A stretch of 36,773 nucleotides of DNA from Chloroflexota bacterium (GTDB lineage: Bacteria > Chloroflexota > Dehalococcoidia > SM23-28-2): assembly GCA_030691665.1 (NCBI GenBank), contig JAUYDU010000370.1, positions 1 through 36,773 on the forward strand. Reading direction: 5' to 3'. Positions 2,174 to 29,093 of the stretch are shown here, in pieces. The notes below the pieces were generated by a model. The model saw nothing but the letters and a program-made list of their open reading frames with translations, was not told where the DNA came from and did not search any database. Position 1 is the first letter of the stretch. Every line of letters begins with the position of its first letter. Position numbers and translations under genes: made by a program.

Positions 2174-2271
2174 CGTGTTCCCCCTCCCTTGGCGGCCGTC
2201 TGTTGGTCTTGCATGCTCGACACTGCCGGACGCCTTCGCCAGTGGGCGATCTACTTCTAGGGCGCTGATGC

Positions 2272-3537
2272 TCACGGGCGTTCTGGCACCCAGCGCTCCT
2301 CCACCGCGGTGGTGTCGAGGGCGTAAACGTATCCGTCCTCGCTCCCGACGTACACTACTCCGGCCGCCACCGCTGGGGAGGAGGCCGGGGAGGTGACCGG
2401 GCCGCCCGTCTGGAAGCGCCAGCGCTCTACCCCCGTGGCAGCGTCTAGAGCGTAGAGGTAGGATTCGTCGGGGATATCGTCGGCGGCGATATAGACTACC
2501 CCCTCTGCCATCACTGGTGAGGAGAACCAGGCGCCGGTCTGGAAGCGCCAGCCCTGTTCTCCCGTGACCGCATTCAAAGTGTAAGCGCCGTCGGAGCTGC
2601 CGACATAGACTACGGCGTTGGCGACCGCGGGTGGGCCTTCCACGCCACTTCCGAAGGCCCAGCGCTCCTCCCCCGTCGCGGCGTCCAGCGCGCGTACGCC
2701 ACCGAGCCAGCTGCCAGTGTAGACCGTCCCATCCGCCACCACCAGGGCGGGAAGCGAGCGCCCGGCGTCGCGGCGCCACCGCAGTTCCCCCGTGGCGGCG
2801 TCCACGGCGTAGACGTGCCCGTCCCCGCTGCCAACGTACACTGCACCCTCCGCCACCACTGGGGAGGAGAGGCCAACGGCCTGGCCCTCGTAGCCCGTCT
2901 GGAAGCGCCACAGCCACTCCCCCGTGGCGGCGTCCAGGGCGTAGACGTAGTTGTCGCCGCTGCCGATGTAGACTACCCCCTGCACCACCGCCGGGGACGA
3001 GACCGAGCCGCCGGTCTCGAAGCGCCACCGCTCCTCGCCCGTGGCGGCGTTCAGGGCGTAGACGTAGTTGTCGCCGCTGCCAATGTAGACGACCCCGTCC
3101 ACTGCCGCCGGGGACGAGACCGAGCCGCCGGTCTCGAAGCGCCACCGCTCCTCCCCCGTGGCGGCGTCCAGGGCGTAGACGTAGTTGTTGTAGCTGCCCA
3201 CATAGACAACCCCGCTTGCCACCTCCGGGTGGGCGTAACCCCACCCGCCCGTCTGGAAGCGCCAAAGCACCTTTGGCGAGCGTTCAACGTCCGGGCCCTC
3301 TGGTGGCGACGTTGCAGTGGGGGCAGGCGTCGGCGAGAGCAGCGGTGTGCGCTCCGCTATGGCTGATGTCCGCTCCGGCGTTGGCGTTGCTTCGCGGTCC
3401 GATGTTGCCGTAGGGGTCGTTCCAGTTGGAGATGGGGTGGGCGTATCCTCGGACATCTCAAAACGGATGCACCCACCTGCAAGCAGGACCAGAAGGAGCA
3501 TGACGCCCATCATCTCGAGCGACCGTCCGACCTTCAT
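2272..3537 (-). CDS. PQQ-like (BamB/YxaL-type) beta-propeller repeat lipoprotein
   Basis: MKVGRSLEMMGVMLLLVLLAGGC lipobox and a Thr/Pro-rich linker are followed by at least 8 repeats of the form G.VY(V/I)GS.D..VYALDAATGEE.WRF.TGG. This is the PQQ enzyme-repeat / PQQ_2 signature. Confidence 0.85.
   Translation of the reverse strand: MKVGRSLEMMGVMLLLVLLAGGCIRFEMSEDTPTPSPTGTTPTATSDREATPTPERTSAIAERTPLLSPTPAPTATSPPEGPDVERSPKVLWRFQTGGWGYAHPEVASGVVYVGSYNNYVYALDAATGEERWRFETGGSVSSPAAVDGVVYIGSGDNYVYALNAATGEERWRFETGGSVSSPAVVQGVVYIGSGDNYVYALDAATGEWLWRFQTGYEGQAVGLSSPVVAEGAVYVGSGDGHVYAVDAATGELRWRRDAGRSLPALVVADGTVYTGSWLGGVRALDAATGEERWAFGSGVEGPPAVANAVVYVGSSDGAYTLNAVTGEQGWRFQTGAWFSSPVMAEGVVYIAADDIPDESYLYALDAATGVERWRFQTGGPVTSPASSPAVAAGVVYVGSEDGYVYALDTTAVEERWVPERP
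2941..3174. repeat. two near-identical tandem 117-bp units (one propeller blade each) inside the beta-propeller gene
   Basis: 2941-3057 and 3058-3174 both begin gtagacgtagttgtcgccgctgcc and differ at only a few positions by eye. Flanking blades (2812-2940, 3175-3290) are clearly more diverged. Confidence 0.85.
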
Positions 3538-6042: not shown

Positions 6043-6951
6043 TCAGGATTTGGAATCCATTCTCTGGAGAGGCAGGGTAACGGTAAAGGTGCTGCCCTTG
6101 CCGGGCGTGCTTTCCACCGTGATCTGCCCCCCGTGCTGCTCCACAATCTTCTTGGCAAGCGGCAGGCCCAAGCCGCTGCCGCCCTCCAGCCGGGTTCGCA
6201 TGTGCCTTGCCCGATACGTCTCGTCGAAGATGTGAGGCAGGTCTTCGGCTGGGATACCTTCCCCCTTGTCGGAGACCTGAGCCTCTAGGACGTCGTCCCT
6301 GACTCCAAGATGGACGTCCACGACGGAGTCAGGAGGGGAGTACTTTATGCCATTATCGAGCAAGTTAATCAACACTTGCTCCAGTTCTTCAGGGTCTCCC
6401 AGCGTCCTAGGGATTCTTGGCGAGGCGTGCAGGTTTAGCTGAATGCGCTTCTTCTCGGCTTGCTCGGTGAGTTTGAGGATTGCATCTTCGGCAATCCTCG
6501 CTACGTTGACCGGCTGCATGTCCAGCACAAACTCGGGGTTGTCCAGGCGCCAGAGGCGATGAAGCTTATCTATGAGTCGAGCTAGCCTTTCAGCCTCCTC
6601 TTGGATGATCTTCTGGTGGCGTCGCCAAATGCCTTCCTCTCCAATGGTGCACTCCCCCATTTCGGCTGCGTACCCCTTGATGGCAGCCAGAGGGGCCCTA
6701 AGTTCATGGGTCAGATGGCCGATGAATTCCGCCGAGGGACTATCTCTCCCTTCGGACAGCCCCTCTGCTGGTTTGCCAGCATCTTCTGGAACGGGCGTCG
6801 GCGAAACGCTCTGCTGTCGACGAAATCGTTGGAAGAGCCAAAGAGCTAGCGCCCCACACCCCAATAGGCCGAAAGCTAGCGCAAGGGCGGAAAAGATGTC
6901 CATGTACACAGTGGGAACAACGACAACGAAGCCGAAGCGCCATACTGTCAT
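6043..6951 (-). CDS. sensor histidine kinase (HisKA + HATPase_c), minimal N-terminal membrane anchor
   Basis: H-box HELRAPLAAIKGY, N-box LLDNGIKYS, G1 DKGEGIP, G2 GGSGLGL. The start overlaps the regulator stop in ATGA (translational coupling). Confidence 0.9.
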   Translation of the reverse strand: MTVWRFGFVVVVPTVYMDIFSALALAFGLLGCGALALWLFQRFRRQQSVSPTPVPEDAGKPAEGLSEGRDSPSAEFIGHLTHELRAPLAAIKGYAAEMGECTIGEEGIWRRHQKIIQEEAERLARLIDKLHRLWRLDNPEFVLDMQPVNVARIAEDAILKLTEQAEKKRIQLNLHASPRIPRTLGDPEELEQVLINLLDNGIKYSPPDSVVDVHLGVRDDVLEAQVSDKGEGIPAEDLPHIFDETYRARHMRTRLEGGSGLGLPLAKKIVEQHGGQITVESTPGKGSTFTVTLPLQRMDSKS

Positions 6952-7646
6952 CTGAAGTCCCTAAACTTGTAGCCTATGCTATGCACATTGAGGATGTAGC
7001 GTGGCTCTCGGGGATTCGGCTCGAGCTTCCGTCGCAATTCCGCGATATGTTTTCTGACCGTCTCGGTTTCGGTGTCGTCGGGGTAGTCGAAGACCTGCTC
7101 CAACAGCGTGGTCTTGCCGAGAGGTATCCCAGCGTTCTCTACCAGCTTCTTTAGAAGGTCGAACTCCTTGGGAGTTAGGTGAACATCCCGCCATTGTCCT
7201 TCCCTTAGGATGCTGACAGTTCTTTGTGGGATGCCGATCTGCATGTAGTCATCAATGACGATGACTTGGGGTGGCAACTTAGACCTGATCCTCGCCGCCA
7301 ACTCGCGCTCACTTATCAGGTCTTTCCGGAGGTAGTCGTCGGCACCCACGTCAAAGCCTAGTTCCAGATCACGTACGTCTTTTCGCTTGTCGGTCAGAAA
7401 GATGATAGGGGTTCTGTTTCCTTGACCGCGAATTCGCTTGCAAACATCTATTCCGTTCAGGTTGGGGTCGCCTAGTTCTATGTCGAGGATAATAAGGTCA
7501 GGCGCGTACTGTTCCACGCAATGCAGTGCCTCATGGCCATCACGCGCAAGGAGGACCTCGTACCCCCTTCTCTCAAGTTGGCCTTGAATGAGAGCGGAAT
7601 AATGAGGCTCGTCTTCTACTACCAGAATCCGCTTCCTCACAGTCAT
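6948..7646 (-). CDS. OmpR-family response regulator
   Basis: Receiver domain (ILVVEDEP..., DLIILDIELG phospho-acceptor context, K in FLTDK) plus a C-terminal winged helix (HLTPKEFDLLKKLVENAG...VRKHIAELRRKLE...ILNVHSIGYKF). Confidence 0.9.
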   Translation of the reverse strand: MTVRKRILVVEDEPHYSALIQGQLERRGYEVLLARDGHEALHCVEQYAPDLIILDIELGDPNLNGIDVCKRIRGQGNRTPIIFLTDKRKDVRDLELGFDVGADDYLRKDLISERELAARIRSKLPPQVIVIDDYMQIGIPQRTVSILREGQWRDVHLTPKEFDLLKKLVENAGIPLGKTTLLEQVFDYPDDTETETVRKHIAELRRKLEPNPREPRYILNVHSIGYKFRDFR

Positions 7647-8386: not shown

Positions 8387-8466
8387 AGCGCATTCAGGTG
8401 GGCGCTTTTCGGTTCAGGTGGGAAAGAGAAGGCCGCCCCGAAGGGCGGAATTCATGTCTTCACCTC

Positions 8467-8534
8467 TGGAGGGCCGGGTGGGATTCGAACCCACGACTCC
8501 CGGATTAAAAGTCCGGAGTTCTACGGCTGAACCG
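8467..8534 (-). tRNA. tRNA-Lys(UUU)-derived sequence, positions ~8-76 present, 5' acceptor strand absent (pseudo-tRNA / att-site remnant)
   Basis: The minus strand reads GTTC-AGCCGTA-GAAC (D arm), CCGGA-CTTTTAA-TCCGG (anticodon UUU), GAGTC, GTGGG-TTCGAAT-CCCAC (T arm), CCGGCCC-T-CCA. The 7 nt that should pair with CCGGCCC are GTCGCGA, not GGGCCGG. The D loop lacks the GG pair. Confidence 0.6.
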
Positions 8535-8860
8535 TCGCGACTTCATCGCTGCTTCCCTCCAAGTCGGCCTGAGCAGGAGCAAACGAAAAGCCTGTACCTG
8601 CTGGCTGAAGGCGGCGTGAGTTGGAAACAACTGACAACGTCACGGGATATCCTCATACCGACGTGCTCCGGCGCCGCTTTTCGAGGGCGCCCGGGGCGCA
8701 GCACGTTTGTCCGCTGTGAGACCTCCTCGACTGCCACTGCCTTGCTCCTTCTGCCCATCCGCAGCGCGTTGGCGTAGGCAGCCAACGTGGCGTCCCTAGG
8801 GTCGCTTGGCCGGCAAATTCGAGTGATCAGGCGGGCGCCCAAGGTGGAAGACGACCATGA

Positions 8861-8896: not shown

Positions 8897-11800
8897 TCAC
8901 CTCGAGCTCGTCAGCTCCTTTAGGAGGGCCGTCGTCTCCGGCAGCGGTTCGGCCTCTTCGTCGTCCAGCTCCCGCCGTAGCGATTCCACCAGCACCTTGT
9001 ACACCTTGCGGACGCCGTTCACGTCCCCCGCCTTGGCGTGGCAGCGCATGAGGCCCCGTGCTGCCTCCTCGTCGATAGGATCGCGAGCCAGGATCGCCCG
9101 GTAGAAGTCCGTCGCTTTCCTGATGTCACGGCAGTCCATAGCCAGACGGGCGGCCGCGTAGGCCGCCGCGATGAACTTCCGCTGGTACTCCTGCCGGTAC
9201 GTGGCCGCCCACTCGTACGGTTCGCCCGCCAGCAAGTCGCCCCGATAGAGGGCCAGCGCCCGCTCGTATTCAGAAAGCGCGTCGGCACCGTGGAGCGACT
9301 CAGCGCGACGGAGGTGCCCCTCGAAGGCGTCCACATCCACCCGAAACAGGCCAGACCGAAGGTGATAGCGCTGCCCGGACGTAGCAAAGAACTGGGTGTC
9401 AGCATCGGCAGTCACACTCTTCAGGGCCCGCCGCAAGTAGTAGGCAGCGTTGGACAGCATGTGCTGCATCTGGCCCAGGTCTCCCTCCGGCCACAGCGCC
9501 TCTGCCGCCTCCTCTCGCGGTACGGCGCTCCCGCCGCGAGCGATGAGATAGGCCAGAAGCTCCCGGGCCTTCTGGATGGTCCATTGGGTCACTTCGCGTC
9601 CGCCAGCCTCTACCTGAAACGACCCGAAGCAGCGGACGGCAAACAGGGGGCCGGCCCCTGGAGCCTCGCCGTCTTCTGGTGTGGTGTCGACAACTCCCGT
9701 TTCAATGAGGCTCAGTTGCCGGGTGGGCCCGCTCCCACCGGCGTCGCTGGCCCCAGCCAACGGTGCTTCATCTGGCGGCGCTTCTTCCGCAGGCGTGTCA
9801 AGCTCTGCTACGCCTGGTACAGGCTCCCGGGCCGGTTCCTCACCGATGTCCGGCCCCAGCGCCTGCTCGACAGACTCTGCCAGCCCTTCGCCCCCGTCGA
9901 CGCTCTCCGTCGGCCCTTCGACATGGCTCCGCGAGTCCCCGTCTGCCTTGACTAGGTCCCCCCGTGGCGGGAGAGTTCCCAGGTTCCCCCCTCGTACCTC
10001 CACGGGCGTCAGTGTGACGCAGACGTCCCGGCCGATGCTGAGCGCCAGTTCGCCGGGTCTCGGGCCGGATTCTGCGGCCCCGTCAGCCTCCCACTCTGCA
10101 ACGCTCCCGCCGAAGACAACGCTTGCGCCGAAGGCGTCGAGGAGCTGCTGCTCCTGAACCTCCTCCACTACGCCGACGGTGTAGACGAGATGCTCCGGCC
10201 CCCGCCGCAGCACCGTGCTCAGCCTCTCGATGTCCGAACCGGCGTCGGGCGAGAGACCGACCACCGCCAGAAGGGCGGCAGGAGTAAGGACGCCGCCCGT
10301 GCCGCGGGCTATGATCGTCTCCTCCAGCTCGGCTGCAACTTCGTCCAGAGAGCGCGAGCGCGACTCCTCGCTGACCATGCGGACGTGCGGCAGCGAGGCC
10401 AGGTCGCCAAGCCTGAGGGTGGCTTCGCCATTCGGCAGGAAGGCGAGGCGTTGGGGAGGATAGGCCGCCGCCAGGGTGGCCAGCCAGGCGGAGACGAGAG
10501 CGTACGCTTCGTGCTCACTTCCCACCACGAGGACGCTCCCGACGGCGGCCAGGTTCAGATAGTGGACTCCCTCGCTATTCGCGCCGACAGGCACCAGCAA
10601 CAGGGCATCAGTTGCCTGACCGTCGCCGACCAGGAGGCCCGCCAGCCGCTGAAACCGAGAGAGCCTCAGCCGAACCCGTGTCGAACTCTCGGCGGCTCCA
10701 TCGATGGCGCAGGCCAGGCGCCGTCCAACGACGTGGCGGCTGCGCGCCACGGCCTGGGCCTCCCCGGGCGCACAATCGAGGGTGAACTCCAGGGTGCGCT
10801 TGGATTCGCGGCATGTCACTACGCGGGGGTCATCGAAACGCAGCTCGGCCAGCGCCTCCAGGAGTGACTGGGCCGCCAGGATCACCCTGCCGGCGTCGCC
10901 CCTGGCGGAGTTGTGTGGCTGGCGGCTCCTGGCCAGGATCTTTAAGGCGCGTCTCCCGTTAGAACCTGCCAGCCGCCTTACGGCTATGGCCACCGCTCCT
11001 GCCGCGCCGAGCCCGAGGGCGCCCGCCAGCACCGCTTCCGCAGGCGGTACCCACCCCCAGCCATCTGCCCCTTCAGCGCTGGGCTGCTCCGGCAAGGCCG
11101 GCGTGACCCAGGAACCAGCGCTGGGTGTGGCTTCTGGCGTGATTGGGGGCTCGCTGGTCGGCGCTGGCGCCGTCGGGGAAGGAAGCTCGGGCGGTATGGG
11201 CGTGGGCGCCTCAGCGGGCGGCGTCACCTCGACTGGGAGTTGTAGCGGCCAGCCCGGCAGGATCAGACTGGGGTCTGTGAATCGCCGCCCGCCGCCCATG
11301 TCCTGACCCTGGTTGAGGTTCCAGATTTCCGCCCAGCGCAGACCGTCGCCCAGGAAACACTCCGCGATGCGCCAGAGGGAGTCGCCCTCGCGGACGCGGT
11401 ACGTCACCCCGCCCTCCACTGGCTCAACATTGGCCGCTGGCAGCGGCACCTTCAGCACCCAGCCGGGCCGGATCAGGCGGGGGTCAGTGAGGACCTCCTC
11501 GTCAGCCATGATCCGGCCCGCGTTCGCCTCGAAGATGCGCGGATAGAGGGAGCCGTCGCCGTAGAACCGGCGAGCGATGTCCCAGAGGGTGTCGCCCTGG
11601 ACCACGGTGTAGGAGACCGAGCCGCCACCGTCCTCCGCAGGTTCGGGGGAGCAGCCGGCGTCCGAGTCCATGTCCGACCGCTGTTCAACAGGTTCGAACA
11701 TCGCCGCGGCCACGACACCTGGATGCACATCCGTCGCTGCCTCAGCTTTCAGCCGAGGAGCTGGAGGTAGCCAGGCGGCGAGGACGAGGGTGCCCGCCAC

Positions 11801-12211
11801 CGCCCCGTCCACGATGCGTCTCACGATGGGAACCGTAATGAGGTCGCTAAGTCGCAGCGCGCTGTGGGTCCAGGCCGTACCCTCAGCCAGTCCCGCCAGG
11901 CCGAGGGCCGCCAGCCGCAGAGTGACGGACAGCGCCAGGTAGATGAGCGCCAGCCAGCCGATGCTCGTGGCCAGGTAAATGACATCCTCGTAGGGCAGGT
12001 AGGAGCCGGTCAAGATCTGGCGCGCCCGTTCCCAGTCCGGCGGCAGCGATGGGGGGTGTGGCGGCCCGTTCAGCCACCACAGCGCGACCCCCAGCGCAAC
12101 GGCTCCAGCCGCCAGCCCGACGAATCGAAGGAGCCCGTCGGCCGGCTCTGTGTCGCGCCCGCCCCGCGGTTGGTCGATGGCTGCCTGTCTTCTCGCGCTC
12201 GCGTCCGCCAA
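8897..12211 (-). CDS. membrane protein: 3 TM - LysM - LysM - Pro-rich linker - TM - degenerate FtsK/EccC-like region - SARP (OmpR-type wHTH + BTAD)
   Basis: LysM modules [20 protein letters not shown]...[11 protein letters not shown] and [20 protein letters not shown]...[12 protein letters not shown]-terminus [18 protein letters not shown]...ARELLAYLI...[21 protein letters not shown]...[14 protein letters not shown] is the SARP/AfsR/DnrI pattern. Start is TTG at 12211, so the exact start is uncertain. Confidence 0.85.
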
Positions 12212-12218
12212 GACCGCT

Positions 12219-13115
12219 CTATCTCCCCGTCAGGATCGATTGCAGCTGCTGAACCGGGTAGGCCGTGGTGAACGAGCGGGTGATGGGGTCCAGCGGCTGC
12301 CAGGGCCCGCCGTCGACCCGGTACCGTGCCGAAAAAGTGATCTCCACGCTTACAGGGAAGGTGCCGCCAGTGCTCAGCGATGATTGCTCGTAGGTGTGGC
12401 GGATGTCGCTCTCTTCCGGGTAGCGCTGGCCCAGGGAGGTCGACTTCAGAGTCGCGCCGTCGCCGAAAGTCCAGCGGTAGCCGGTAGGGGTAATCTCCAC
12501 CTCCACGGTGGTGCCACCCAAGGTATCCGACGCCGCGATAGGCAAGCCGTCGTACCCCTCCACCCAGAACCAGGACGGCAGCGCCACCAGTCCCACTTCG
12601 GGGTTCACGCCCACGGTGATGGCTGGCACCGGCACGTGGTCCAGCAGCTCTGCCGCCACGCTCGCCGGGTCGACCGGATCGCCCTGCACGACAACCACAC
12701 TCACCTCCGACGCTTCCACATCGAGGGGAAGCCAGACGATACTCATGAATCCGTTGTCGCACTGAACCACCCAGGGCGCCTCCCCGGGGTGAAGGGCCGA
12801 CTCGCGTTCGAACCACTCGCGGGTGGCGTTGCCGATGTTCATCACGTCGGCTGTACACGACCAGCCTCCTCCGGAGCTGCTGCTGGTGTCGCTGGACGAC
12901 GAGTCGCCCGAACTCCCAGGAGAGGTCTCGCTGACCGCGATGTAGATAGTCACACCGTCAGGCCCTGATTCGACGTAGGTCACAGCAGAGTCCGGCTTGT
13001 TGTCTCCAGGGTCGCCCGGATCGCCGGGCGACGGGTCATCGGCCAAAGCGCCCGTCACTATGAGTCCTGCCGTAAGAGCAGCGAAGCCTACCACTAGCAG
13101 GTGACGCATCTTCAC
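12219..13115 (-). CDS. secreted protein of the Tad operon, function unknown
   Basis: Signal peptide [25 protein letters not shown], a Pro/Asp and Ser-rich linker, then a conserved-looking body ([12 protein letters not shown]..., YRWTFGDG...). An ATG at 13109 is an alternative to the GTG at 13115. An 8-nt gap separates it from the next gene. Confidence 0.7.
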
Positions 13116-13121: not shown

Positions 13122-13676
13122 TTAGCGCTGGCGAGTGCTCCGCACTACCTTCCAGTCGCCGCTTATCTTCTGGAAGTAGAATGTGTCCTTCAGGATTTCA
13201 CCACTCCCTGATGCCTGGCCGGGTTCCTTTGTCTCAGCGTCCACGTAGAAGCTGTTGTTCGTGATCTCGTCGTACAAAGTGGCCGAATCCGAGGTCATGT
13301 CCACGACCAGGAACTTGTGACTGACGTCGACTCTGAGAGCGAGTCCCTGCGACCGCAGGCCATCTATCTCCTCTTGGATGCGTTGTAGCTCTTCGCCCGC
13401 TGCCACTCCCTCCACCAGCGCCGGGTTCAGGTCAAGCAGCGCCTGGCTGTAGGCATCCCAGTAGCGCAGGTATGCTGCCTCCACCTCCTCTTCGGGTGAA
13501 ACGGTCGTGGTCGCCGGAGGGGTCTGCGTGGGCGCAACTGTGGCCGTGGCCGTAGCTGCCGGGGTCGGCGAGCCTTGGCCGTCCACGCGCTCTCCGTTTC
13601 CTCCACCTCCGTCGCACCCGAAGGCAGTCAGGGTCAACGCCGCCAGTACCACCGTGATTACCAGTCGCCGTATCAA
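13122..13676 (-). CDS. lipoprotein of the Tad operon, function unknown
   Basis: TTG start with GAGGAG 6 nt upstream. MIRRLVITVVLAALTLTAFGC lipobox, a Thr/Pro/Ala linker, and a ~120-aa globular part. Confidence 0.65.
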   Translation of the reverse strand: MIRRLVITVVLAALTLTAFGCDGGGGNGERVDGQGSPTPAATATATVAPTQTPPATTTVSPEEEVEAAYLRYWDAYSQALLDLNPALVEGVAAGEELQRIQEEIDGLRSQGLALRVDVSHKFLVVDMTSDSATLYDEITNNSFYVDAETKEPGQASGSGEILKDTFYFQKISGDWKVVRSTRQR

Positions 13677-13707: not shown

Positions 13708-14145
13708 TCAGGGCATCGCCGACGCCACGCCGTGACGGGGCTCCGCCGTCGCCTTCGCGCCGATCTCCACGCTATCGATGCCTACCACCCGCAGGAAGCC
13801 CGTCGAGGCCTGCCTTGACACTGCCACCTCCACTCCCGCGGGACGGACGACCACCGAGTAGTCAAGGCCGCCCTCGTCCTCGAGGTAGCCCACGGCCGCC
13901 CGATAGGCTGCTTGCTCGTCCAGCACCACCGACCCCGACGCCCGGTAGGCGCCCTCGTCAACCTGCATGGCGCCGGCCAGGGCCGCCGCGTCGGCCACGT
14001 TCTGGAGGTCTCGCCGCTGGGCGAAGACGAGACCGCCGTCAGATACCAGACCGACGACCGCCACGAGACCGACCATCGTGATGGCCACCATCACGATGAC
14101 CTGGCCGCCCTCGTCGGCCGAGAAGCGTCGCAGGAACGCCTTCAC
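13708..14145 (-). CDS. TadG-like pseudopilin (TadE/G-like N-terminal domain)
   Basis: DEGGQVIVMVAITMVGLVAVVGLVSDGGLVFAQRRDLQNVADAAALAGA matches the Flp pilus-assembly TadG N-terminal pattern. GTGA overlap with the upstream gene. Confidence 0.75.
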   Translation of the reverse strand: MKAFLRRFSADEGGQVIVMVAITMVGLVAVVGLVSDGGLVFAQRRDLQNVADAAALAGAMQVDEGAYRASGSVVLDEQAAYRAAVGYLEDEGGLDYSVVVRPAGVEVAVSRQASTGFLRVVGIDSVEIGAKATAEPRHGVASAMP

Positions 14146-14612
14146 CGCAGCACCGCCTCCCGGCTCCGGTAGAGGTCGATGCGCTCGGCGTGGGTGCTCG
14201 ATACGGTCACCTCCACACGATCCAGGAGAGGCAGGTCGGCCAGGGGCACCCGGTAGCTCACTTCGGCCGTAGCCACACCTCCCCGCTGAAAGCCGCCTGT
14301 GTCCACATCAACCGCCAGGTTGCTCTGCGAGAGCCCGTAGCCGTCGGCCACCGACCGCGCGCTCTGGAGAGCGGCCGTCACGCCCTCTGACTCTGAGGAC
14401 GCGGTGGCCAGACTGCGCCCGGCCTCTCGGGCCGCCGCCTGCACCGCCACCTTGGCGTGGGCGATCCGGCCCACCATCACCACGCCGAAGGCCAGGAGCA
14501 GCAGCACAGGGATCACCAGCGCTGCCTCCACCAGGGCCTGGCCGGCCTCGCCCCGACCGATCCGCCACCACCACGAGGCCGTCCGTCCACCGGCACCGCC
14601 ATCACGGCCCAC
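14142..14612 (-). CDS. tadE: TadE-like pseudopilin
   Basis: GEAGQALVEAALVIPVLLLLAFGVVMVGRIAHAKVAVQAAAREAGR is the TadE-like motif (G/xxxxE(A/F)AL..P). Start is GTG. Confidence 0.75.
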   Translation of the reverse strand: MGRDGGAGGRTASWWWRIGRGEAGQALVEAALVIPVLLLLAFGVVMVGRIAHAKVAVQAAAREAGRSLATASSESEGVTAALQSARSVADGYGLSQSNLAVDVDTGGFQRGGVATAEVSYRVPLADLPLLDRVEVTVSSTHAERIDLYRSREAVLR

Positions 14613-15009
14613 TGCGGAACCCCTCCTGCCGTACCTCAGCCGTCGCCTCGATGGGGATGCTCCGGCCGGTCACCCAGGGAATGAAGAGCGGGTAGTCGCC
14701 CTCCGTGTGCACCACCATCGTCTCACCCCTATCTTGCGCTGTCACGCCGAACCCGCCGGCGCTACGCCCCAGGCCCGACTCGAGCACCTCGCGGGCGCGG
14801 GCCGCGCCCTCGGCCGGGGTCCGACCCTCGGCCGCCGCCAGGCGCGCCCCCTCCTGCACCGCCGTGGTCGCCACGTCCCTGGCGTGGTACACCAGGGCGA
14901 ACTGGACCACCCCGATGAGGATGACCAGCAACACCGGCAGCGCCAGGGCGAACTCCACCATGCTCTGGCCGCGCTCGGCACCAAGCAGCCGGAAGGCGGT
15001 CCGGGCCAC
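14602..15009 (-). CDS. tadE: TadE-like pseudopilin
   Basis: RGQSMVEFALALPVLLVILIGVVQFALVYHARDVATTAVQEGAR is the TadE-like motif. Start is GTG at 15009. Confidence 0.8.
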   Translation of the reverse strand: MARTAFRLLGAERGQSMVEFALALPVLLVILIGVVQFALVYHARDVATTAVQEGARLAAAEGRTPAEGAARAREVLESGLGRSAGGFGVTAQDRGETMVVHTEGDYPLFIPWVTGRSIPIEATAEVRQEGFRSGP

Positions 15010-15010: not shown

Positions 15011-15214
15011 CTACATGCCCGTGATGCTGCTCACTATGTTCCCGAAGACAGTGCTGATGCCGCCCCCCAGGGCCTCGACCGCCGCCATTGCGGCGACGGC
15101 GATGAGGGCGGCGACGATGGCGTACTCCACCATCGTCTGCCCTATCTCGGCCCCGGCCAGGCGTTGCAGCCGCCCCAGGGCCGCCCCTGCCAGCTCGAGA
15201 AACCGTCCTGCCAT
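15011..15214 (-). CDS. flp: Flp-family type IVb prepilin
   Basis: ATG at 15214 with GGAGGTG 6 nt upstream. The 67-aa product has the Flp processing/hydrophobic motif G-QTMVEYAIVAALIAVAAMAAV. Confidence 0.85.
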   Translation of the reverse strand: MAGRFLELAGAALGRLQRLAGAEIGQTMVEYAIVAALIAVAAMAAVEALGGGISTVFGNIVSSITGM

Positions 15215-15273
15215 CGCTTCACCTCCGCTCCCGCCCGCTCTCACGGGCGAGTTCATTCACCTCTCCTGACCGC

Positions 15274-16218
15274 TCAGCCGCCGAGGCCCAGGAGTTCGAC
15301 CCCGGCCGGGTAGAGGAGCACCACCAGGAACACCGGAAAGATGAACACGGCCACCGGGAAGAGCATACGCACCGTGCTCTTGCCGCCTTCCTCCAGGAGG
15401 CGTGCCCTCTTCTTGTCTCGAACCGTCTCCCCCAGGGTGAGCATCGCCTGGCCCAGGGGCAGCCCCTGCTCCAGGGCCGCCTGCCAGGCGTCAGCCACCG
15501 AGGCCAGCTCGCCGACTCCCTCCCGCTCGGCCAGCCGGCGTAGCGCCTCAGCGTGGGTCGCCGCGCCCAGCCCGGCCTCCCGCACGGCGTCCCGCAGGCC
15601 GTCGCCCAGCACACCGCCTACCTGCCGGCTCACCTCCAGCAGCGCCTGCTCCGGCGACATGCCGGCGCTGGCGGCGATGGCCAGCAGGTCCAGCACCGTC
15701 GGCAGCTCCATCACCACCGCCGTGCGGCGTCGCTCCAGCCTCTCCTCCAGCATCCAGTCGGGCGCGGCGAACCCCAGGCCGAAACCCACCAGCCACATCC
15801 ACACCGGCCACGCTCCAAAGGGGTGGACCCCCAGGACGTTCATGAGGGGAAACGCCGTCAACAAGACCAGCCCGCTGGCCAGCTTCTGACCGTAGAACTG
15901 GGCCGTCGTCATGCCCGGCCAGCCCAGGGCCAGCTTCCGCTCCAGGTCGCGGCCACCGAGCCCGGTGCGGGCGACGACTCGCCCCAGGACGCGGCCGGCG
16001 TCCTCCAGCAGGGGGCGCAGCAGCCGCTCCAGGGCGGGCGACTTAAACACCGCCGCCTGCGAGCCGCGGCGCCCTGCCTCCTCCTGAAGCCGCCCCTGGG
16101 CCGTCAGGCGCCGCAGACGGGAAGCCAGGTCCGGACGCCGCCGGCCCACCGGCTGGGCTGTGACTATCAGCCACAGGCCGCCGCCGAGCATGCCGCTCAA
16201 GATCAGCGCTACCGCCAT
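15274..16218 (-). CDS. tadC: TadC (T2SS-F family inner-membrane platform protein)
   Basis: 314-aa polytopic protein with the T2SSF-type cytoplasmic domain (LPTVLDLLAIAASAGMSPEQALLEV...). Its position after tadB is typical. Confidence 0.8.
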   Translation of the reverse strand: MAVALILSGMLGGGLWLIVTAQPVGRRRPDLASRLRRLTAQGRLQEEAGRRGSQAAVFKSPALERLLRPLLEDAGRVLGRVVARTGLGGRDLERKLALGWPGMTTAQFYGQKLASGLVLLTAFPLMNVLGVHPFGAWPVWMWLVGFGLGFAAPDWMLEERLERRRTAVVMELPTVLDLLAIAASAGMSPEQALLEVSRQVGGVLGDGLRDAVREAGLGAATHAEALRRLAEREGVGELASVADAWQAALEQGLPLGQAMLTLGETVRDKKRARLLEEGGKSTVRMLFPVAVFIFPVFLVVLLYPAGVELLGLGG

Positions 16219-17078: not shown

Positions 17079-17114
17079 GACCTCGTCTCCTCCTTGCCCT
17101 CAGGATGGCTCAGG

Positions 17115-17190
17115 CCAGTCCAATCCCAGTCCAATCGTTGGCACTGACGCCATCGAGTTGCTCCAATCCCAGTCCAATTTCAGTCCAAAG
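17115..17190 (-). promoter_or_regulatory. two arrays of 11-bp direct repeats (GATTGGACTGG on the coding strand) in the tadA-tadB spacer
   Basis: 17115-17125 and 17126-17136 are identical (ccagtccaatc x2 on plus strand). 17158-17168, 17169-17179 and 17180-17190 are three more consecutive 11-bp units (ttgctccaatc, ccagtccaatt, tcagtccaaag). Confidence 0.6.
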
Positions 17191-17214: not shown

Positions 17215-18498
17215 CTACGCCCCTTCCCACGGCAGGCCCGCCGCCTGCACCCGCGCCGCACAGCGGGGCCGGATGCCCGTCCAGGAGAGCCGCCCGCCGT
17301 CGGCCAGCGAGAACAGCTCGCTGCCCGCCACCGCGTCCTCCTCCAGGCCGGTGACCTCGTACAGGCTGCCCACCAGGCGGCGGCCGCTACTGGAGTCCAG
17401 CCGCAGGTGCACCACCAGGTCGATGGCTTCGGCTATCATCTCGGTGACCGAACGCGCCGGTAGGGCCTCCTCAGCCATCATGGCGTAGGTGCGCAGCTTC
17501 GAGAGGGCCTGGCGGGGGCCGTTGGCGTGGATAGTGCACATCGACCCCTCGTGGCCGCTGTTCATCGCCGACAGCATGTCCAGGGCTTCGCTACCCCGCA
17601 CCTCGCCCACGATGATCCGCGTCGGCCGCATGCGCAGGGCGTTCTTCACCAGGCTGCGGATGGAGACGGCGCCGACCCCCTCCACGTTGGGCAAGCGGGC
17701 CTGGAGGGACACGCAGTCGGGGAGCATGGACTCCAGCTGGAGCTCTGCCGTCTCCTCGATAGTCACCACCCGCTCGTGTGCCCCGGCTATGGAGGCACCC
17801 AGGGCGTTGAGGCAGGTGGTCTTGCCGCTACCCGTGCCGCCGGAGATGAGGATGTTCAGCCCCGCCTGCACCGCTGCCTCCAGGAAGCCCGCCACTTCCA
17901 GTGTCAGGCTCCCCAGGCCCACCAGGTCGTCGAGGGTACGGGCCCGCAACAGGAACTTGCGGATGGTGACGTGCGTCCAGCGAGAGGTCAACGGCGGGAT
18001 GACGGCGTTCAGGCGCGAGCCGTCGGGCAGGCGGGCGTCCACCATGGGGCTGGTCTCGTCCAGCCGCCGGCCCAGGCCTCCCACGGCCCGCCGCACCAGC
18101 CGCAGCAGCTCGGCGTCGTCCTCGAAGAACACGTCGGCCAGGCGCTTGCACCCGCCCTCGATGGCGAACACGCGGTGCGGCCCGTTGACGATGATCTCCT
18201 CCACCGCCGGGTCGTCCAGCAGAGGCTGCAAGGGACCCAGACCGAGGATGTCGTCCAGGATGCGCTGGGCCAGCCCCTGGGGGTCTGCCAGCGGCGTCTC
18301 TCCCGCCGCCAGGGCGCGCCGGTTGAAGGCGTCGATCCGCTCGGCGACGATGCGCCGCACGCGCTCCACCTCGCCCGGGCCCGGCTCCGCCAGGGCGTCG
18401 ACGGCCATGACCCGGCGCAGCTCCTCCCGCACCTCCTCGCGCAGAGCTCGCTCCCGCTCCCTGCGGGCGTCTGGCTGCACCAGCCCCGAAATCGCCAT
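17215..18498 (-). CDS. tadA: TadA/CpaF secretion ATPase
   Basis: Internal ATG at 18498 overlapping the tadZ stop (TGATG). Walker A ILISGGTGSGKTT and VirB11/CpaF-type body (VTIRKF, RIIVGEVRGSEALDML, GHEGSMCTIHAN). The upstream 111 aa of the listed ORF are Gly/Arg junk overlapping tadZ. Confidence 0.9.
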   Translation of the reverse strand: MAISGLVQPDARRERERALREEVREELRRVMAVDALAEPGPGEVERVRRIVAERIDAFNRRALAAGETPLADPQGLAQRILDDILGLGPLQPLLDDPAVEEIIVNGPHRVFAIEGGCKRLADVFFEDDAELLRLVRRAVGGLGRRLDETSPMVDARLPDGSRLNAVIPPLTSRWTHVTIRKFLLRARTLDDLVGLGSLTLEVAGFLEAAVQAGLNILISGGTGSGKTTCLNALGASIAGAHERVVTIEETAELQLESMLPDCVSLQARLPNVEGVGAVSIRSLVKNALRMRPTRIIVGEVRGSEALDMLSAMNSGHEGSMCTIHANGPRQALSKLRTYAMMAEEALPARSVTEMIAEAIDLVVHLRLDSSSGRRLVGSLYEVTGLEEDAVAGSELFSLADGGRLSWTGIRPRCAARVQAAGLPWEGA

Positions 18499-19754
18499 CA
18501 CGCTCTCCTGAAGGCCAGCCGCCAGCGCCGGCGCCGGCCTGCGCCTGCCCGCACCGCTGCTTCTCGACCGGCCAGTGCCGACGCGAGTCGGCGCAGCTCG
18601 CGCGCAGCGCCGCCGCCGACGGCCGTGAGCGGCACCTGTTCCCCCACCGCCCGCCCCGCCGCCTTGCGGTCCTCCGGCAGGGCCGCCAGGACGGGCGCGC
18701 CCAGGGCCCGCTCCACCTCCTCCGCGTCGTAGTGCTCGCGGCCCTCCCGCCGCTTGAGCACAATGCCGATAGCCTCTCCCTCGACGCCCAGGCCCTCGCG
18801 CAGGTAGCGCAGAGCGGCGCGGGCGTTCCATACCGCCACCAGGTCCGCTTCGCTCACCACCAGGATGCGCTCAGCCTGCCGAAGGAGCGCATCCGTGGCG
18901 GGAGAGGCTGCTCCGGCGATGGCGCAGCCGGCGTCGACCACCACGTCGTCGAAGGCCGACCCCAGCGCGGCGGTGGCCGCTGTCATCACATCTGCTGAAA
19001 TGGCCGACCGCTGTTCGGCGCGCTCTATGCCGCCCAGGACCATGAAGCCGGGCCCTTCTTGGAGCTCCTCGTCCAGGCGCCCGGCCCACTCGTTGGGCGA
19101 GGCGTCCTTCCCGTAGGCCAGGGCAAATAGCCCTCGCTGCGGGTCCAGATCCAGATAGGCCCCCACATTCCCGCCCCAGGGGTCGGCGTCCACCAGGACG
19201 ACCTCCCGTCGCCGCTCGGCCAGAGCCGCTGCCAGGCCGATGGCCACCGTTGTCTTCCCCGGCGCCCCCTTCCCGCTCACCACCGCCATCAGCCGCCCCC
19301 GAGGGGCATCGCCGTCACCGCCGGGCAAAGACCCCTGCATTCCTGCGTCCTCTATCTGCGCCGAGGCCGCAGGGGCACTGTACACCGGACCCCGCCTCAC
19401 CGCCGCACGCAGGGCTGCCGTCACGTCAGACGCGCTGGCGCTGGCCGGCACCAGGTGCGCCAGCTCTCCGTAGCGCGACACGTCCTGCCCGTCGGCGATG
19501 AGCACCAGGGGCAGGCGGGCGTCTCGCACGGCCGTGAGGACCGCGGCTGACAGACGGTGCAGGTCGCTCGAGGCGAGGGCTACGTCGACATCGGCGCCGC
19601 CGGCGCGCTCGGCCAGGGAAGGGCCGTCCAGACAGCGGCCGGCCACCACCAGGCCGTCGCCCGGCAGGCCCTCCAGCAGCCGCCGCTCCCGCTCGGCGTT
19701 GCCCACCGCCAGGAGCACGCGTATCGAAGGCTGATCGTCACTGGACGATGACAT
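18498..19754 (-). CDS. tadZ: TadZ/CpaE (receiver-like N-domain + MinD/ParA-type ATPase)
   Basis: Deviant Walker A VVSGKGAPGKTT, preceded by a receiver-like domain (IRVLLAVGNAERERRLL...). Confidence 0.8.
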   Translation of the reverse strand: MSSSSDDQPSIRVLLAVGNAERERRLLEGLPGDGLVVAGRCLDGPSLAERAGGADVDVALASSDLHRLSAAVLTAVRDARLPLVLIADGQDVSRYGELAHLVPASASASDVTAALRAAVRRGPVYSAPAASAQIEDAGMQGSLPGGDGDAPRGRLMAVVSGKGAPGKTTVAIGLAAALAERRREVVLVDADPWGGNVGAYLDLDPQRGLFALAYGKDASPNEWAGRLDEELQEGPGFMVLGGIERAEQRSAISADVMTAATAALGSAFDDVVVDAGCAIAGAASPATDALLRQAERILVVSEADLVAVWNARAALRYLREGLGVEGEAIGIVLKRREGREHYDAEEVERALGAPVLAALPEDRKAAGRAVGEQVPLTAVGGGAARELRRLASALAGREAAVRAGAGRRRRWRLAFRRA

Positions 19755-19773: not shown

Positions 19774-20472
19774 TTAAGGGACCGCAGCCTGAGAAGAGGC
19801 CTCCGCCGGGGGCAGGAGGGCCAGGGTGATGTCCCAGTTGACGGTAGCGTGAGCGACTCGCTCGGCCTCCGAGCGAGGCACCAGCAAGGTGACGTTGGTC
19901 AGCCCCCGCTCCTCCTCTGTCTGCCCGCGGGAGCCAAGGGCGATGGATCCCGGCTCGAGGGAGACGTCGTAGACCACGGCCCGATCCAGTAGGGTGACCG
20001 TCTGGCTGTCGGGCTTCCCCTTGTCCCGCGTGGCCAGCACCGCCACGCCGTCGCCCGGGCGCAGTCCGGCGTAGACCGCGTCCGCCTCGACGGGCACCGT
20101 CATCGCCACCTCGTCGGCGCCGATCACCGGGCCGGAGGCCAGATCGGGCCAGACCAGCATCTCCCCAGCATGTACCGGACCCGCCGTCGCCTGCCCTACC
20201 GCGTCGTTCAGTCGGGCATCGGGGATGGCGAGCGAGGCGAGGCCGTCCTCCAGGCGTACCCGTGCCACCGCAAGGTCGTCGTTCTGGATCACGTGGCCAG
20301 CCGGGATCTCCCGGCTGGCCACCAGCACCGGCACGGTCTCGCGGGTTGAGCCCCAGAAGAGGAGCCCGCCGCCCACCGAGGCGACCACCAGGACCAGGCC
20401 CAGCAGCATACGGCCGTCGACCTTTCCCAGGCCTGCCAGCCGAAACCGCCGCCGAGCCGTGATGGTCGCCAT
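19774..20472 (-). CDS. cpaB: CpaB/RcpC-like Flp pilus assembly protein (SAF domain)
   Basis: ATG at 20472 with GGGAGGG upstream. N-terminal TM (MLLGLVLVVASVGGGLLFW), then the SAF-type segment VPVLVASREIPAGHVIQNDDLAVARV. Confidence 0.75.
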   Translation of the reverse strand: MATITARRRFRLAGLGKVDGRMLLGLVLVVASVGGGLLFWGSTRETVPVLVASREIPAGHVIQNDDLAVARVRLEDGLASLAIPDARLNDAVGQATAGPVHAGEMLVWPDLASGPVIGADEVAMTVPVEADAVYAGLRPGDGVAVLATRDKGKPDSQTVTLLDRAVVYDVSLEPGSIALGSRGQTEEERGLTNVTLLVPRSEAERVAHATVNWDITLALLPPAEASSQAAVP

Positions 20473-20539
20473 GGCCCTCCCTGCCAGCCTGGATATGGAA
20501 AGCGAGAGGCTTCCCTCTGTGCCGAGCAAAGGGTGCCAC

Positions 20540-20776
20540 TGATGATAAACGGTAAAGCGAGGATTGTCAACCCTTGTGAACGAAATTTAATGAAATGTTT
20601 TCGGCACCGGCTTTTTGCGATACACTGAGATCGATGCTGTTGAGCATCAAGAGCTGGCTGAGCGGAGCCAGCCACGACGGCGCGCCCAACGGCGAGATCG
20701 GGTCTCCGCTCCCCGACCCCGAGGGAGCTAGCCCGCCTCGCCGGATCGCCGGGCGCACAAAGGGGGGAACAGAACT
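20540..20776. promoter_or_regulatory. divergent control region between the Tad operon and the EspR-like gene
   Basis: The only AT-rich stretch in this part of the window. It contains the direct repeat TTGTCAAC (20564-20571) / TTGTGAAC (20574-20581). No convincing -10 could be paired by eye. Confidence 0.35.
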
Positions 20777-21200: not shown

Positions 21201-21230
21201 ACCGCTGCCTAACCGCTGCCTAACCGCTGC
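21201..21230. repeat. 11-bp tandem repeat accgctgccta x2.7 at the truncation point of the integrase stub
   Basis: accgctgccta (21201-21211), accgctgccta (21212-21222), accgctgc (21223-21230). Confidence 0.8.
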
Positions 21231-23859: not shown

Positions 23860-24345
23860 GTGAGCAGCACCGGATACAGGGGAGAAGGTGCAGTGAAGGC
23901 GAATGCTAGACCGAGGAACGCAACTGACGGGAGAAGGTGGGAAGTAGGGAACCACCTATTCACCGTCCTCAAACCAAGCACCTTATCCTCTCCAGGGTGA
24001 CACTCCAGCCCCAGGAAAGCCGAGGGCAACACGTTGCCTGGCAAGCTACTCACCGTCCTTCTCTCCCAACACTACCGTGGCGTCGCGTGTACACACCCCG
24101 TTACCCTTCCCCTTCGTCACAGTTGGACCTTCTCGATTAACTCAAGATGTAAATATAGCCACGGTCATATTTTTCTCCAACGCCGCTCCAACTGCGCCCG
24201 GCGTCGTCCCTGCCCTTACTCCCCAATCCCGGCGCTGCCCTGTGCATCGCCGCAGAGGGGCGCCGTGTCGGCCTGAATCGACCGCACCCATCGTTTCGCG
24301 AGTCGTCATACTCTGGGCGCTCTCTTGCACGGGCCGCCGCCAAAA

Positions 24346-24404
24346 TTGGAGTATATCCTCGCCAATTGGACTGCGCCCGCCGGATTCTTGGACTCGATTT
24401 GGAC
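24346..24404 (+). promoter_or_regulatory. four phased TTGGA(C/G) direct repeats
   Basis: TTGGA starts at 24346, 24366, 24388 and 24399 (aATTGGAGt, aATTGGACTGc, cTTGGACTCg, tTTGGACCTc). Spacings are 20, 22 and 11 bp. Same core as the tadA-tadB spacer repeats. Confidence 0.5.
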
Positions 24405-24847
24405 CTCCCAGCGGTAGGCTTGGCCCCGTAAGAAGCGCGTTTAGTCGGTACCGCCAATCGAAGAACCGACAGGACGGCCCGTCCGAGACCTTGGCCGGAT
24501 CAACCCGAAAGGGGAACGAGCTTGCTCTCCAGACTAGGGGCTGAACAGGGCAAGAGGATCAAGCAACAGGGCTGGCAAGAGGCCAGGATTCACGAAGGGA
24601 GGTGCGAACGAACAGGAAGCTGACACGAGACTCCACAGCCGAACCAGACGCCGTAGTCAGAGAAGGGAGGCGACCGAAGCCGAGAGACGACTCGTTCGAG
24701 TCCGACTGACAAGCCGGCGAAGAGCCGCTCCCAATAGAACGACGCACGGGCACCAGCGATTCGGCGAAATGAGGCCTCCTCGCGTCGGTCCGACCGAGAG
24801 CAACGGGTCTCGCCTGTAGCCTGAGCTGCCCGCTGTCCGTCAAGCAG

Positions 24848-25929: not shown

Positions 25930-25951
25930 TTCAGCAAGGAGGTGAACAACC

Positions 25952-26974: not shown

Positions 26975-26999
26975 CTTTCCGGCCTCTAGAACGCCTTTC

Positions 27000-29081: not shown

Positions 29082-29093
29082 AAGGAGATCGCT

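Follow-up and report, generated by a model that had tools for sequence, protein, structure and literature searches.

The window examined here is a 36,773-nt stretch of DNA, contig JAUYDU010000370.1 (positions 1 to 36,773, forward strand; assembly GCA_030691665.1), from a Chloroflexota bacterium of the class Dehalococcoidia. It carries a cluster of Tad pilus genes on its minus strand. The last gene of this cluster encodes an 1104-residue membrane protein that combines two LysM modules, an FtsK-like domain and a C-terminal SARP module, that is, a winged helix-turn-helix (wHTH) followed by a BTAD domain. We refer to this protein as LysM-SARP. Its gene is the longest open reading frame (ORF) of its region and starts 8 nt past the stop of the preceding gene (12219). 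An identical protein entry at NCBI carries the name 'LysM peptidoglycan-binding domain-containing protein'. The gene and the parts of its product are listed below (TM, transmembrane span; AF2, AlphaFold2; pLDDT, predicted local distance difference test).

8897..12211, minus strand: gene of the LysM / FtsK-like / SARP membrane protein, 1104 aa; TTG start at 12211, stop at 8897-8899 (ORF list and translation)
12071..12136, minus strand: TM1, aa 26-47; hydropathy 1.96, family mean hydropathy 1.79; AF2 helix 23-48
11918..11983, minus strand: TM2, aa 77-98; hydropathy 2.03; AF2 helix 74-108
11765..11812, minus strand: TM3, the weakest span, aa 134-149; hydropathy 1.44-1.49; AF2 helix 113-147
11444..11620, minus strand: LysM domain 1, aa 198-256; best PF01476 stretch 201-256; pLDDT ~90
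11237..11410, minus strand: LysM domain 2, aa 268-325; second PF01476 stretch; beta-alpha-alpha-beta fold in the AF2 model
11039..11236, minus strand: Pro-rich linker, presumably extracytoplasmic, aa 326-391; from the translation; pLDDT <50
10979..11038, minus strand: TM4, aa 392-411; hydropathy 2.17; AF2 helix 392-415; flank after TM4 +4.5 across the family
9992..10906, minus strand: pseudo-ATPase domain of FtsK/TcpA/EccC fold, predicted cytoplasmic, aa 436-740; from Foldseek; pLDDT >90
10502..10537, minus strand: position of the degenerate P-loop, aa 559-570; from the family alignment
9656..9991, minus strand: acidic, Pro-rich disordered linker, aa 741-852; from the translation; pLDDT 27-42
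9338..9655, minus strand: OmpR-type wHTH, aa 853-958; Trans_reg_C 24.3 bits; Foldseek matches to AfsR and EmbR; R927 invariant in the family
8900..9337, minus strand: BTAD domain, aa 959-1104; PF03704 57.4 bits; pLDDT ~97

Pfam finds LysM twice in the protein (56.7 bits) and BTAD over residues 958-1099, directly after the wHTH and covering 144 of the 146 profile positions. Profile hidden Markov models thus bear out both domains named in a preliminary description of the locus. The same description had recognised an OmpR-type wHTH plus BTAD at the C-terminus, and the structure model agrees. This AF2 model, a monomer prediction built from a 62-sequence family alignment, has a mean pLDDT of 74.6, reaching ~96 over the wHTH and BTAD together (aa 853-1102) and ~95 over the wHTH; residues 147-195, 333-434 (the TM4 helix excepted) and 742-850 are disordered. 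When the C-terminus is superposed on the AfsR SARP module as seen in the transcription initiation complex (8k60_I), the TM-score is 0.76, normalised to the target chain, and the root-mean-square deviation 3.7 A. Foldseek also pairs this module with EmbR. The recognition-helix signature YYLRRAL is conserved and R927 is invariant across the 62 sequences. By fold and domain content LysM-SARP is a SARP, without the usual soluble architecture in which the module is N-terminal. Neither Pfam nor NCBIfam matches a ToxR or CadC sensor domain in it.

The central domain had been described as an FtsK/EccC-like region with a degenerate P-loop, and on both counts the description stands. Against the PDB, Foldseek places it with the E. 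coli FtsK motor (2ius_D, E=3.8e-11, 372 columns), the pCW3 coupling protein TcpA (6o1x, E=1.5e-9), EccC (4n1a, 8e-7) and EssC. PF01580 (FtsK_SpoIIIE) passes its threshold at the equivalent region of the distant members P0055, P0059, P0065, P0070 and P0081, while the window protein itself gives just a weak EccCb match (E=0.053) and phmmer with its central region retrieves nothing from the PDB sequences. The region had been put at about 450 residues; this total is reached only if the 110-residue acidic linker is included, the folded part being ~305 residues long (436-740). None of the 62 aligned relatives has GK[ST] at the P-loop position, and Walker B is absent too; likewise, regular expressions for Walker A and B find no match in 22 diverse family members. 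In the P-loop columns the window protein has G-SEHE-A, four residues short of a P-loop, where distant members have G-LPDGGVE-T; at Walker B the window protein has GLSPD. To judge from these alignments, the FtsK-like domain has lost its nucleotide site across the whole family. A role as an active DNA translocase is ruled out by the family-wide absence of Walker A and B.

The topology was approached by applying the positive-inside rule to the 62 aligned relatives, together with hydropathy and the AF2 helices. Hydropathy peaks at residues 26-44, 77-105, 127-151 (weakly, 1.44-1.49) and 393-411, and with the modelled helices accounts for all four spans of the preliminary description. The mean net charge over the family is +0.8 at the N-terminus, -2.3 in loop 1, +3.3 in loop 2, -5.1 in the LysM region, -1.8 before TM4 and +4.5 after it. 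Because this charge bias obeys the positive-inside rule, the predicted topology is N-terminus in, three spans, LysM out, TM4, SARP in. It agrees with the earlier proposal that the LysM pair and the DNA-binding domain fall on opposite sides of the membrane. Placing LysM outside needs TM3 as a genuine span. One related locus (L035; L numbers denote the loci of our survey, see below) encodes at 9350-11125, plus strand, a 591-residue 'mini' paralog that keeps TM1, TM2 and the SARP module without LysM, TM4 or the FtsK-like domain. It serves as a natural control of the topology, since with two spans its SARP module would likewise be cytoplasmic. To either side of its gene lie GGAAC/TGGAC arrays with 11-nt phasing (8669-8760 and 11183-11290), of the kind described below for the window.

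The genes upstream of LysM-SARP, in the order of transcription, are the following.

20542..20570, minus strand: sigma-70 promoter, near-consensus TTGACA-17-TATCAT, 11/12 matches, directly upstream of cpaB
19774..20529, minus strand: cpaB/rcpC, with SAF and RcpC domains
18498..19754, minus strand: tadZ (ParA/MinD-like), from domain matches
17215..18831, minus strand: tadA/cpaF ATPase, given as the longest ORF, true start probably near 18500; T2SSE 168 bits
16209-17078, minus strand: tadB, T2SSF domain, GTG start at 17078
15274-16218, minus strand: tadC, T2SSF domain
15011..15256, minus strand: Flp pilin, PF04964 34.5 bits, above the cut-off; G/QTMVEY motif
13708..15009, minus strand: two tadE genes and a tadG-like pseudopilin gene, with TadE and Tad Pfam matches
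13122-13676, minus strand: conserved lipoprotein, lipobox LTAFGC in the translation
12219-13115, minus strand: secreted protein with a signal peptide, from the translation

A scan of GTDB with a 22-sequence alignment, taking one genome per species, yielded 79 loci, in which tad genes were sought by tblastn with the Tad proteins of the window. They are present in 65 of the 79. Wherever a Chloroflexota locus extends far enough upstream, the order is TadZ-A-B-C-(Flp)-E-E-G-lipoprotein-secreted protein-LysM/SARP on one strand, the lipoprotein and secreted protein genes being syntenic throughout the related Chloroflexota loci. Loci of Actinomycetota (Promicromonospora, Nocardioides, Isoptericola, Propionibacteriaceae) likewise carry tadA and tadE upstream. 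Plasmids share the same gene order, which ends in a LysM protein of 1025 residues (Cutibacterium modestum) or 1127 residues (Streptomyces sp. T12), placed after tadG. These two proteins are 22-24% identical to that of the window, and Pfam detects only LysM in the two as scanned; hhalign finds both homologous over their full length (probability 99.9-100%, columns 22-1095). The expected linkage of homologues to tad genes is therefore near-invariable, with the same order in Chloroflexota and on plasmids. The further claim that the gene is the last, tightly packed one of a pilus operon holds in the window and not in every relative. No homologue of the prepilin peptidase gene tadV is present in the window; in a sister clade (L014, L015, L023, L026, L027, L031, L032, L034, L036) tadV follows, as a Peptidase_A24 gene, at ~13.3-13.9 kb, that overlaps the LysM-SARP stop.

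The family is a large one and unstudied. Among 1.84 billion representatives (50% identity clusters), a profile search returned 10,417 proteins at E<=1e-30, and at least 150 clusters at E<=1e-120 match the profile mostly nearly end to end. A functional study of the family was not found in the literature. A table published in 2013 lists, in the Tad locus of the P. acnes plasmid pIMPLE-HL096PA1, ORF PAGK_2369 with Pfam content 'LysM, BTAD', labelled 'TadB' and left without comment (PMC3666418, Table 2). By this description, that is by Pfam content and Tad-locus position and not by alignment, PAGK_2369 appears to be a counterpart of LysM-SARP. A 2017 study of C. acnes plasmids makes no mention of PAGK_2369, calls the link between Flp pili and conjugation genes unclear, and counts among the open questions how the tad locus is regulated and how it is connected with conjugation (PMC5696575). 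A phage origin of the family is ruled out: the matches in viral contigs of IMG/VR are all generic phage LysM proteins, none of them a full-length relative.

Two DNA stretches proposed earlier as targets of the regulator, 17115-17190 and 24346-24404, turn out to be arrays of 11-nt phased repeats with the geometry of SARP boxes and a conserved position. The features of these arrays are as follows.

17118..17188, minus strand: SARP-box-like array between tadA and tadB; TTGGAC/TTGGAG boxes, three distal and two proximal, with 11-nt phasing within each group; TRF period 11
17102..17107, minus strand: -10-like hexamer CATCCT, 10 nt past the last TTGGAC; then the ribosome-binding site AAGGAGG and the tadB GTG at 17078
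24346..24404, plus strand: second SARP-box-like array; four TTGGAG/TTGGAC boxes with spacings of 20, 22 and 11 nt
24415..24420, plus strand: -10-like hexamer TAGGCT, 10 nt past the last box; compare GCAGGCTAGCCC and GCACGCTAACCC after the arrays of relatives
24175..24191, minus strand: possible third site TTGGAG-N5-TTGGAG, in the opposite orientation, with TATATT 16 nt downstream

The first array lies in the 136-nt spacer between tadA and tadB, its boxes on the strand of the operon. The window has five occurrences of TTGGAS-N5-TTGGAS, three of them in this spacer; 0.54 would be expected, and none of 100 shuffles reached five. Arrays are found at the equivalent position in ~20 related loci. Taken together, 21 spacers contain 126 self-matches of 5-mers at offset 11 and 81 at offset 22, where shuffles give ~5, and in an unbiased scan of loci of ~23 kb the top 11/22-periodic site is the tadA-tadB spacer in 15 of 26. 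The related spacers share a layout: a box pair, 20-33 nt, a second box pair, ~10 nt, an xAxxAT hexamer, a ribosome-binding site and the tadB start, the hexamer being at the matching offset in L001, L002, L004, L008-L013, L027, L036 and others. The arrays are not coding repeats, since their period of 11 is not divisible by three. According to the published rule for SARP sites, direct repeats are 11 or 22 bp apart and the 3' repeat lies 8 bp from the -10 element (PMC10936776). By its geometry the tadA-tadB array fits this rule and is a candidate binding site. As the arrays are conserved in position, they lend independent support to a DNA-binding regulator, and LysM-SARP, the sole SARP in the window, is the candidate binder. 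In Actinomycetota, strong 11-nt phased arrays near the cluster were seen at 847-920 of L074 (Promicromonospora plasmid pNFX87a; word TACTGGC), at 15993-16060 and 16762-16830 of L044 (word TCCGACG), and at 16256-16320 of L078 (word GTGCGCAC).

The repeated word is specific to the lineage, and the recognition helix of the wHTH changes in step with it.

Window: repeat word TTGGAC
L001: repeat word TTGGAGT
L002: spacer repeat word ATTGGnGTG
L008/10/11/12/13/28/38/39: repeat word TTGGAAC, recognition helix HPLPNAAYYVRRTL
L020/L033: repeat word CTGGATTG, recognition helix HMLANATSALRSVV
L023: repeat word GGGAGC, recognition helix HMLANAAYAARAAC
L027/L036: repeat word TTGGGGCG, recognition helix HNLRNIAAVLRATL
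L019: repeat word TGTGGAG
L018: repeat word TCGAG

A single metagenome-assembled genome holds two clusters with different pairs of word and helix (GGGAGC in L023, CTGGATTG in L033). We regard the co-variation as supportive rather than as proof. Several genomes hold two to three complete Tad and LysM-SARP clusters plus partial copies, each with its own repeat word: L014, L031, L032, L035 and L040 lie on one chromosome (OZ253555.1), L008 and L012 on JABTUD010000001, and L023 and L033 in BTUI01. Such copies are consistent with multiple related mobile elements.

The relatives extend the picture beyond what the preliminary description had covered: their type IV secretion system (T4SS) genes carry the same arrays, and the family is found on actinobacterial plasmids. 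T4SS genes adjoin the cluster in L002, L003, L005, L015, L023, L026 and L036. The operon preceded by an array in relatives encodes a TrbL_4 (VirB6-like) protein, a wall hydrolase with SLT and NlpC/P60 domains, a PrgI-family (VirB3-like) protein, a VirB4-type ATPase (P-loop_TraG/AAA_10) and a DnaG-type primase; its array stands directly upstream and is written in the locus-specific word. Indeed, the spacer and the array upstream of TrbL share eight repeated 5-mers within the same element in L003, six in L015 and four in L023. Across loci mostly zero or one is shared, and three to five only among the window, L002 and L003, which have related TGGAC-type words. The second array of the window matches in layout those upstream of the TrbL-like genes in L003, L015, L023 and L026, and the sequence that follows is conserved (GATCGCAnGCTA(A/G)CCC in relatives; GGTAGGCTTGGCCCC in the window). 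In L040 an equivalent array is followed by o199, o340 and the primase, as in the window. Here the plus strand at 25055-36339 encodes o199, o340, a UvrD helicase, a DnaG-type primase, Rad52/22, a RadC-like JAB protein, an N6-methylase-like protein and a SNF2 helicase, a DNA-processing block typical of a mobile element. The primase, o340 and o199 recur near the LysM-SARP loci L015, L023, L036 and L040. It appears that the Tad cluster belongs to a mobile, conjugative-type element, of which the window's copy is either partly degenerate or continues past the end of the contig.

Between the Tad cluster and the second array, at 21.2-24.3 kb, lies a stretch of lower GC content (0.59-0.64) that may be an insertion into the element. 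At its edge (21201-21230) is a perfect 11-nt tandem repeat, ACCGCTGCCTA x2.7, whose word is unlike the SARP boxes. Its genes include an Mrr-type restriction endonuclease (21520-22407) and a MazE-like fragment (22708-22884). The ORF at 21252-21530 looks by eye like the C-terminus of an integrase, a reading that Pfam, with no match, leaves unconfirmed. The box pair at 24175-24191 could form a divergent promoter, either SARP-dependent or -35-like.

Taken together, LysM-SARP is probably a SARP, tethered to the membrane and anchored to the wall, that activates the genes of the Tad pilus and, in relatives, those of conjugation as well. Resident in the Tad cluster, it would activate the cluster's transcription, with its LysM pair bound to peptidoglycan outside. 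SARP modules would sit side by side on the 11-nt phased TTGGAC boxes, which would replace a -35 element, and RNA polymerase would be recruited in the manner of AfsR. The promoter between tadA and tadB would drive tadB, tadC, flp, tadE/G and the genes of the lipoprotein, the secreted protein and the regulator itself. Because the regulator's gene lies inside the operon that it would drive, positive autoregulation would follow. A second promoter (24346-24420) would serve transfer or DNA-processing genes, and its counterparts in relatives would drive T4SS operons. Basal expression of cpaB, tadZ and tadA would come from the sigma-70 promoter before cpaB, which contrasts with the -35-less promoter-like site before tadB. 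Further steps are speculative. LysM would fix the protein to the wall and may report the state of the wall, in line with the cell-wall input proposed in the preliminary description, or it may be no more than an anchor. The FtsK-like domain may form a ring that oligomerises the protein, so that SARP modules on tethers of ~110 residues could reach the four to eight boxes of an array. Tethering might also hold the locus at the membrane, near the site of machine assembly, and favour expression close to the membrane, as has been proposed for VtrA (PMC9977878), and regulated proteolysis in the linker might free the SARP module.

A bolder version, which we think rather unlikely, makes the protein a domesticated ring of coupling-protein or FtsK type, fused to a SARP, and the master switch of an unrecognised class of conjugative elements in single-membrane bacteria (Chloroflexota and Actinomycetota, acne-associated Cutibacterium plasmids included) that combine a Tad pilus with a Gram-positive-type T4SS. 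The outward LysM pair would detect contact with a wall, or muropeptides, whether the source is a mating partner or the hydrolase of the element itself, and ring assembly would relay the signal to multi-site SARP binding. The pilus, channel and DNA-processing operons would be switched on together while the element DNA is tethered at the transfer site.

Several observations weigh against an activator of this kind. It is read from sequence and models. A near-universal, apparently stoichiometric place in the operon would also suit a structural subunit. TM3, short and weakly hydrophobic, is the soft spot of the topology argument. Trans_reg_C (aa 881-935) stays at 24.3 bits, under the Pfam cut-off of 26.2, and a phmmer search of the PDB sequences with the SARP region retrieves designed TPR proteins only, not AfsR or EmbR. 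As to the arrays, L014, L026, L031 and L034 have no tadA-tadB spacer, and L032 shows no clear array despite its retained SARP module. Arrays are detected in only some of the actinobacterial plasmid homologues; in the plasmid homologues tadA and tadB overlap, hence there is no spacer array. The co-variation of helix and word is confounded by phylogeny, and L002 has ATTGGnGTG in the spacer but TTGGACT upstream of trbL, with no shared 5-mer. In the window itself TrbL, SLT/P60 and other conjugation genes were not found, and the ~650 nt after the second array hold no conserved ORF.

A first alternative is that the protein is primarily structural, a peptidoglycan-anchored scaffold of the monoderm Tad (or Tad-T4SS) machine in which the FtsK-like ring and BTAD are docking platforms and the wHTH is vestigial. 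Its logic would be that of FimV/TsaP in type IVa pili. In ~30 loci and on plasmids the gene holds an invariant place in a structural operon, with pseudopilins and envelope proteins as neighbours, which would suit such a part, as would a catalytically dead FtsK-like domain. BTAD has a TPR-like fold, in keeping with the TPR matches, and LysM anchors other envelope machines to the wall (PilO-LysM/TsaP, PMC13319060). A vestigial wHTH, however, should not retain a canonical recognition helix (YYLRRAL, R927 invariant) and a high-confidence AfsR-like fold, nor should arrays of promoter geometry accompany the gene and vary with its helix; moreover, the paralog cut down to a TM hairpin and a SARP module has arrays on its flanks. 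We consider a primarily structural protein unlikely, while noting that such a role is compatible with a regulatory one. LysM-SARP might instead be a degenerate type IV coupling protein or a TraB-like DNA dock, the arrays being clt/TRS-like sites of tethering in cis and not primarily promoters. FtsK and TraB are built of N-terminal spans, an FtsK-like domain and a C-terminal winged helix, a plan that LysM-SARP parallels, and the fold matches include both FtsK and TcpA. T4SS genes (TrbL_4, PrgI, VirB4-type, SLT+NlpC/P60) are adjacent in seven loci, and homologues reside on plasmids with conjugation signatures (PMC5696575). Yet with Walker A and B absent in every member there is no motor, and the C. 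acnes plasmids encode a separate FtsK-domain protein (PMC5696575). The arrays, too, keep a fixed distance from the -10-like hexamers, ribosome-binding sites and starts of two operons, which is promoter-like and would not be needed at a transfer origin. A coupling protein or dock is in our judgement quite improbable.

A third alternative is that another regulator binds the arrays. Two other DNA-binding genes in the window could supply it, leaving the SARP module with other targets or none. One encodes an OmpR-family response regulator (6948-7646), part of a pair with a histidine kinase (6043-7646, minus strand) that lies downstream of a tRNA gene, ~1.3 kb from the LysM-SARP gene; response regulators of the OmpR type likewise bind direct repeats about one helical turn apart. 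The other, at 20777-21184 on the plus strand and divergent from cpaB and the Tad cluster, encodes a 135-residue, XRE-like helix-turn-helix (HTH) protein with a weak HTH_3 match, of which a 65%-identical copy occupies the same position in L002. But the kinase and response regulator occur near the cluster in one more locus only (L009) and the HTH gene in L002 only, while arrays are present in ~20 loci. LysM-SARP is the only DNA-binding gene always found with the arrays, and two clusters in one genome use different words. Binding by either of the other two proteins is thus very improbable, and the tethered activator is the reading that we retain.

Some further features of the window may be recorded. 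By eye, the 135-residue HTH protein resembles nucleoid-associated regulators of the EspR type. The tRNA gene just mentioned, tRNA-Lys(UUU) at 8471-8542 (minus strand), lies 355 nt downstream of the LysM-SARP stop, is followed by a terminator-like hairpin (8433-8448) and is the sole match of an Rfam scan. Integration linked to a tRNA is ruled out as a feature of the family, none of 30 related loci having an adjacent tRNA. Tandem repeats of 99 nt (x3.2, 1261-1576) and 117 nt (x2.8, 2893-3214) sit in overlapping minus-strand ORFs with HEAT repeats (1160-3265) and a PQQ/beta-propeller (2272-3537), and probably correspond to repeat units of the proteins.

If true, a membrane-embedded, wall-anchored SARP serving a surface machine in Chloroflexota broadens both the roles and the range of SARPs. 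The LysM-SARP gene is present in every monoderm-type Tad cluster examined, that of the C. modestum plasmid included; going by the 2013 table, acne-associated plasmids of C. acnes are probably to be added (PMC3666418). The results also suggest that, in single-membrane bacteria, the Tad pilus and T4SS genes of mobile elements belong to a single regulon. With defined box arrays, -10-like elements and a DNA-binding fragment of 250 residues, the proposed regulator is precisely testable.

Each part of LysM-SARP has its likeness among known systems. FimV, TsaP and PilO-LysM, like LysM-SARP, have an outside LysM that ties a component of a filament machine to the wall, and FimV has cytoplasmic TPR motifs as well. 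They show no sequence relation to LysM-SARP beyond LysM and are without a DNA-binding domain. PilO-LysM in Chloroflexota is discussed in PMC13319060. With FtsK/SpoIIIE, Streptomyces TraB, TcpA and EccC/EssC the protein shares a RecA-like motor fold placed after membrane spans. In FtsK and TraB the C-terminal domain is a winged helix by which short repeated DNA words are recognised. LysM-SARP, unlike this group, lacks Walker A and B and is not a translocase, and its winged helix is of the OmpR/SARP type, not a gamma domain.

The resemblance to ToxR, TcpP, CadC and VtrA lies in the one-component logic, a predicted cytoplasmic OmpR-type wHTH being joined through the membrane to a domain outside in a protein that would activate transcription from its place in the membrane. 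The preliminary description had called the protein a ToxR/CadC-style regulator; the functional likeness stands, whereas the build is another one. In the ToxR/CadC type the wHTH is N-terminal, there is one span and the periplasmic sensor is C-terminal, while in LysM-SARP the order of domains is inverted, with the sensor N-terminal and the wHTH C-terminal behind four spans; BTAD and the FtsK-like domain are added, and the outer domains are not homologous. In PMC9977878 it is proposed that VtrA-type regulators couple the expression of a secretion machine, the type III secretion system 2 (T3SS2), with its assembly at the membrane. A 2023 survey of transmembrane regulators makes no mention of SARP, BTAD or LysM.

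The closest kin are the SARPs themselves (AfsR, ActII-ORF4, RedD, EmbR), with which LysM-SARP has in common the wHTH and BTAD module, the AfsR-like fold and the situation within a gene cluster. The general view of SARPs is of soluble proteins, largely specific to actinomycetes, that activate antibiotic pathways. The candidate targets of LysM-SARP resemble SARP sites in geometry: direct repeats with a spacing of 11 or 22 nt stand in place of a -35 element, and the last of them ends 8-10 nt short of the -10; binding is predicted in the present case. The module is N-terminal in SARPs of the small, medium and large classes and C-terminal (aa 853-1104), behind four spans, in LysM-SARP, in whose membrane-embedded chain LysM and the FtsK-like pseudo-ATPase replace the NOD/TPR extensions of 'large' SARPs. 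Finally, LysM-SARP occurs in Chloroflexota as well as in Actinomycetota, and its putative targets are the genes of pili and conjugation, not those of antibiotic biosynthesis as in SARPs.

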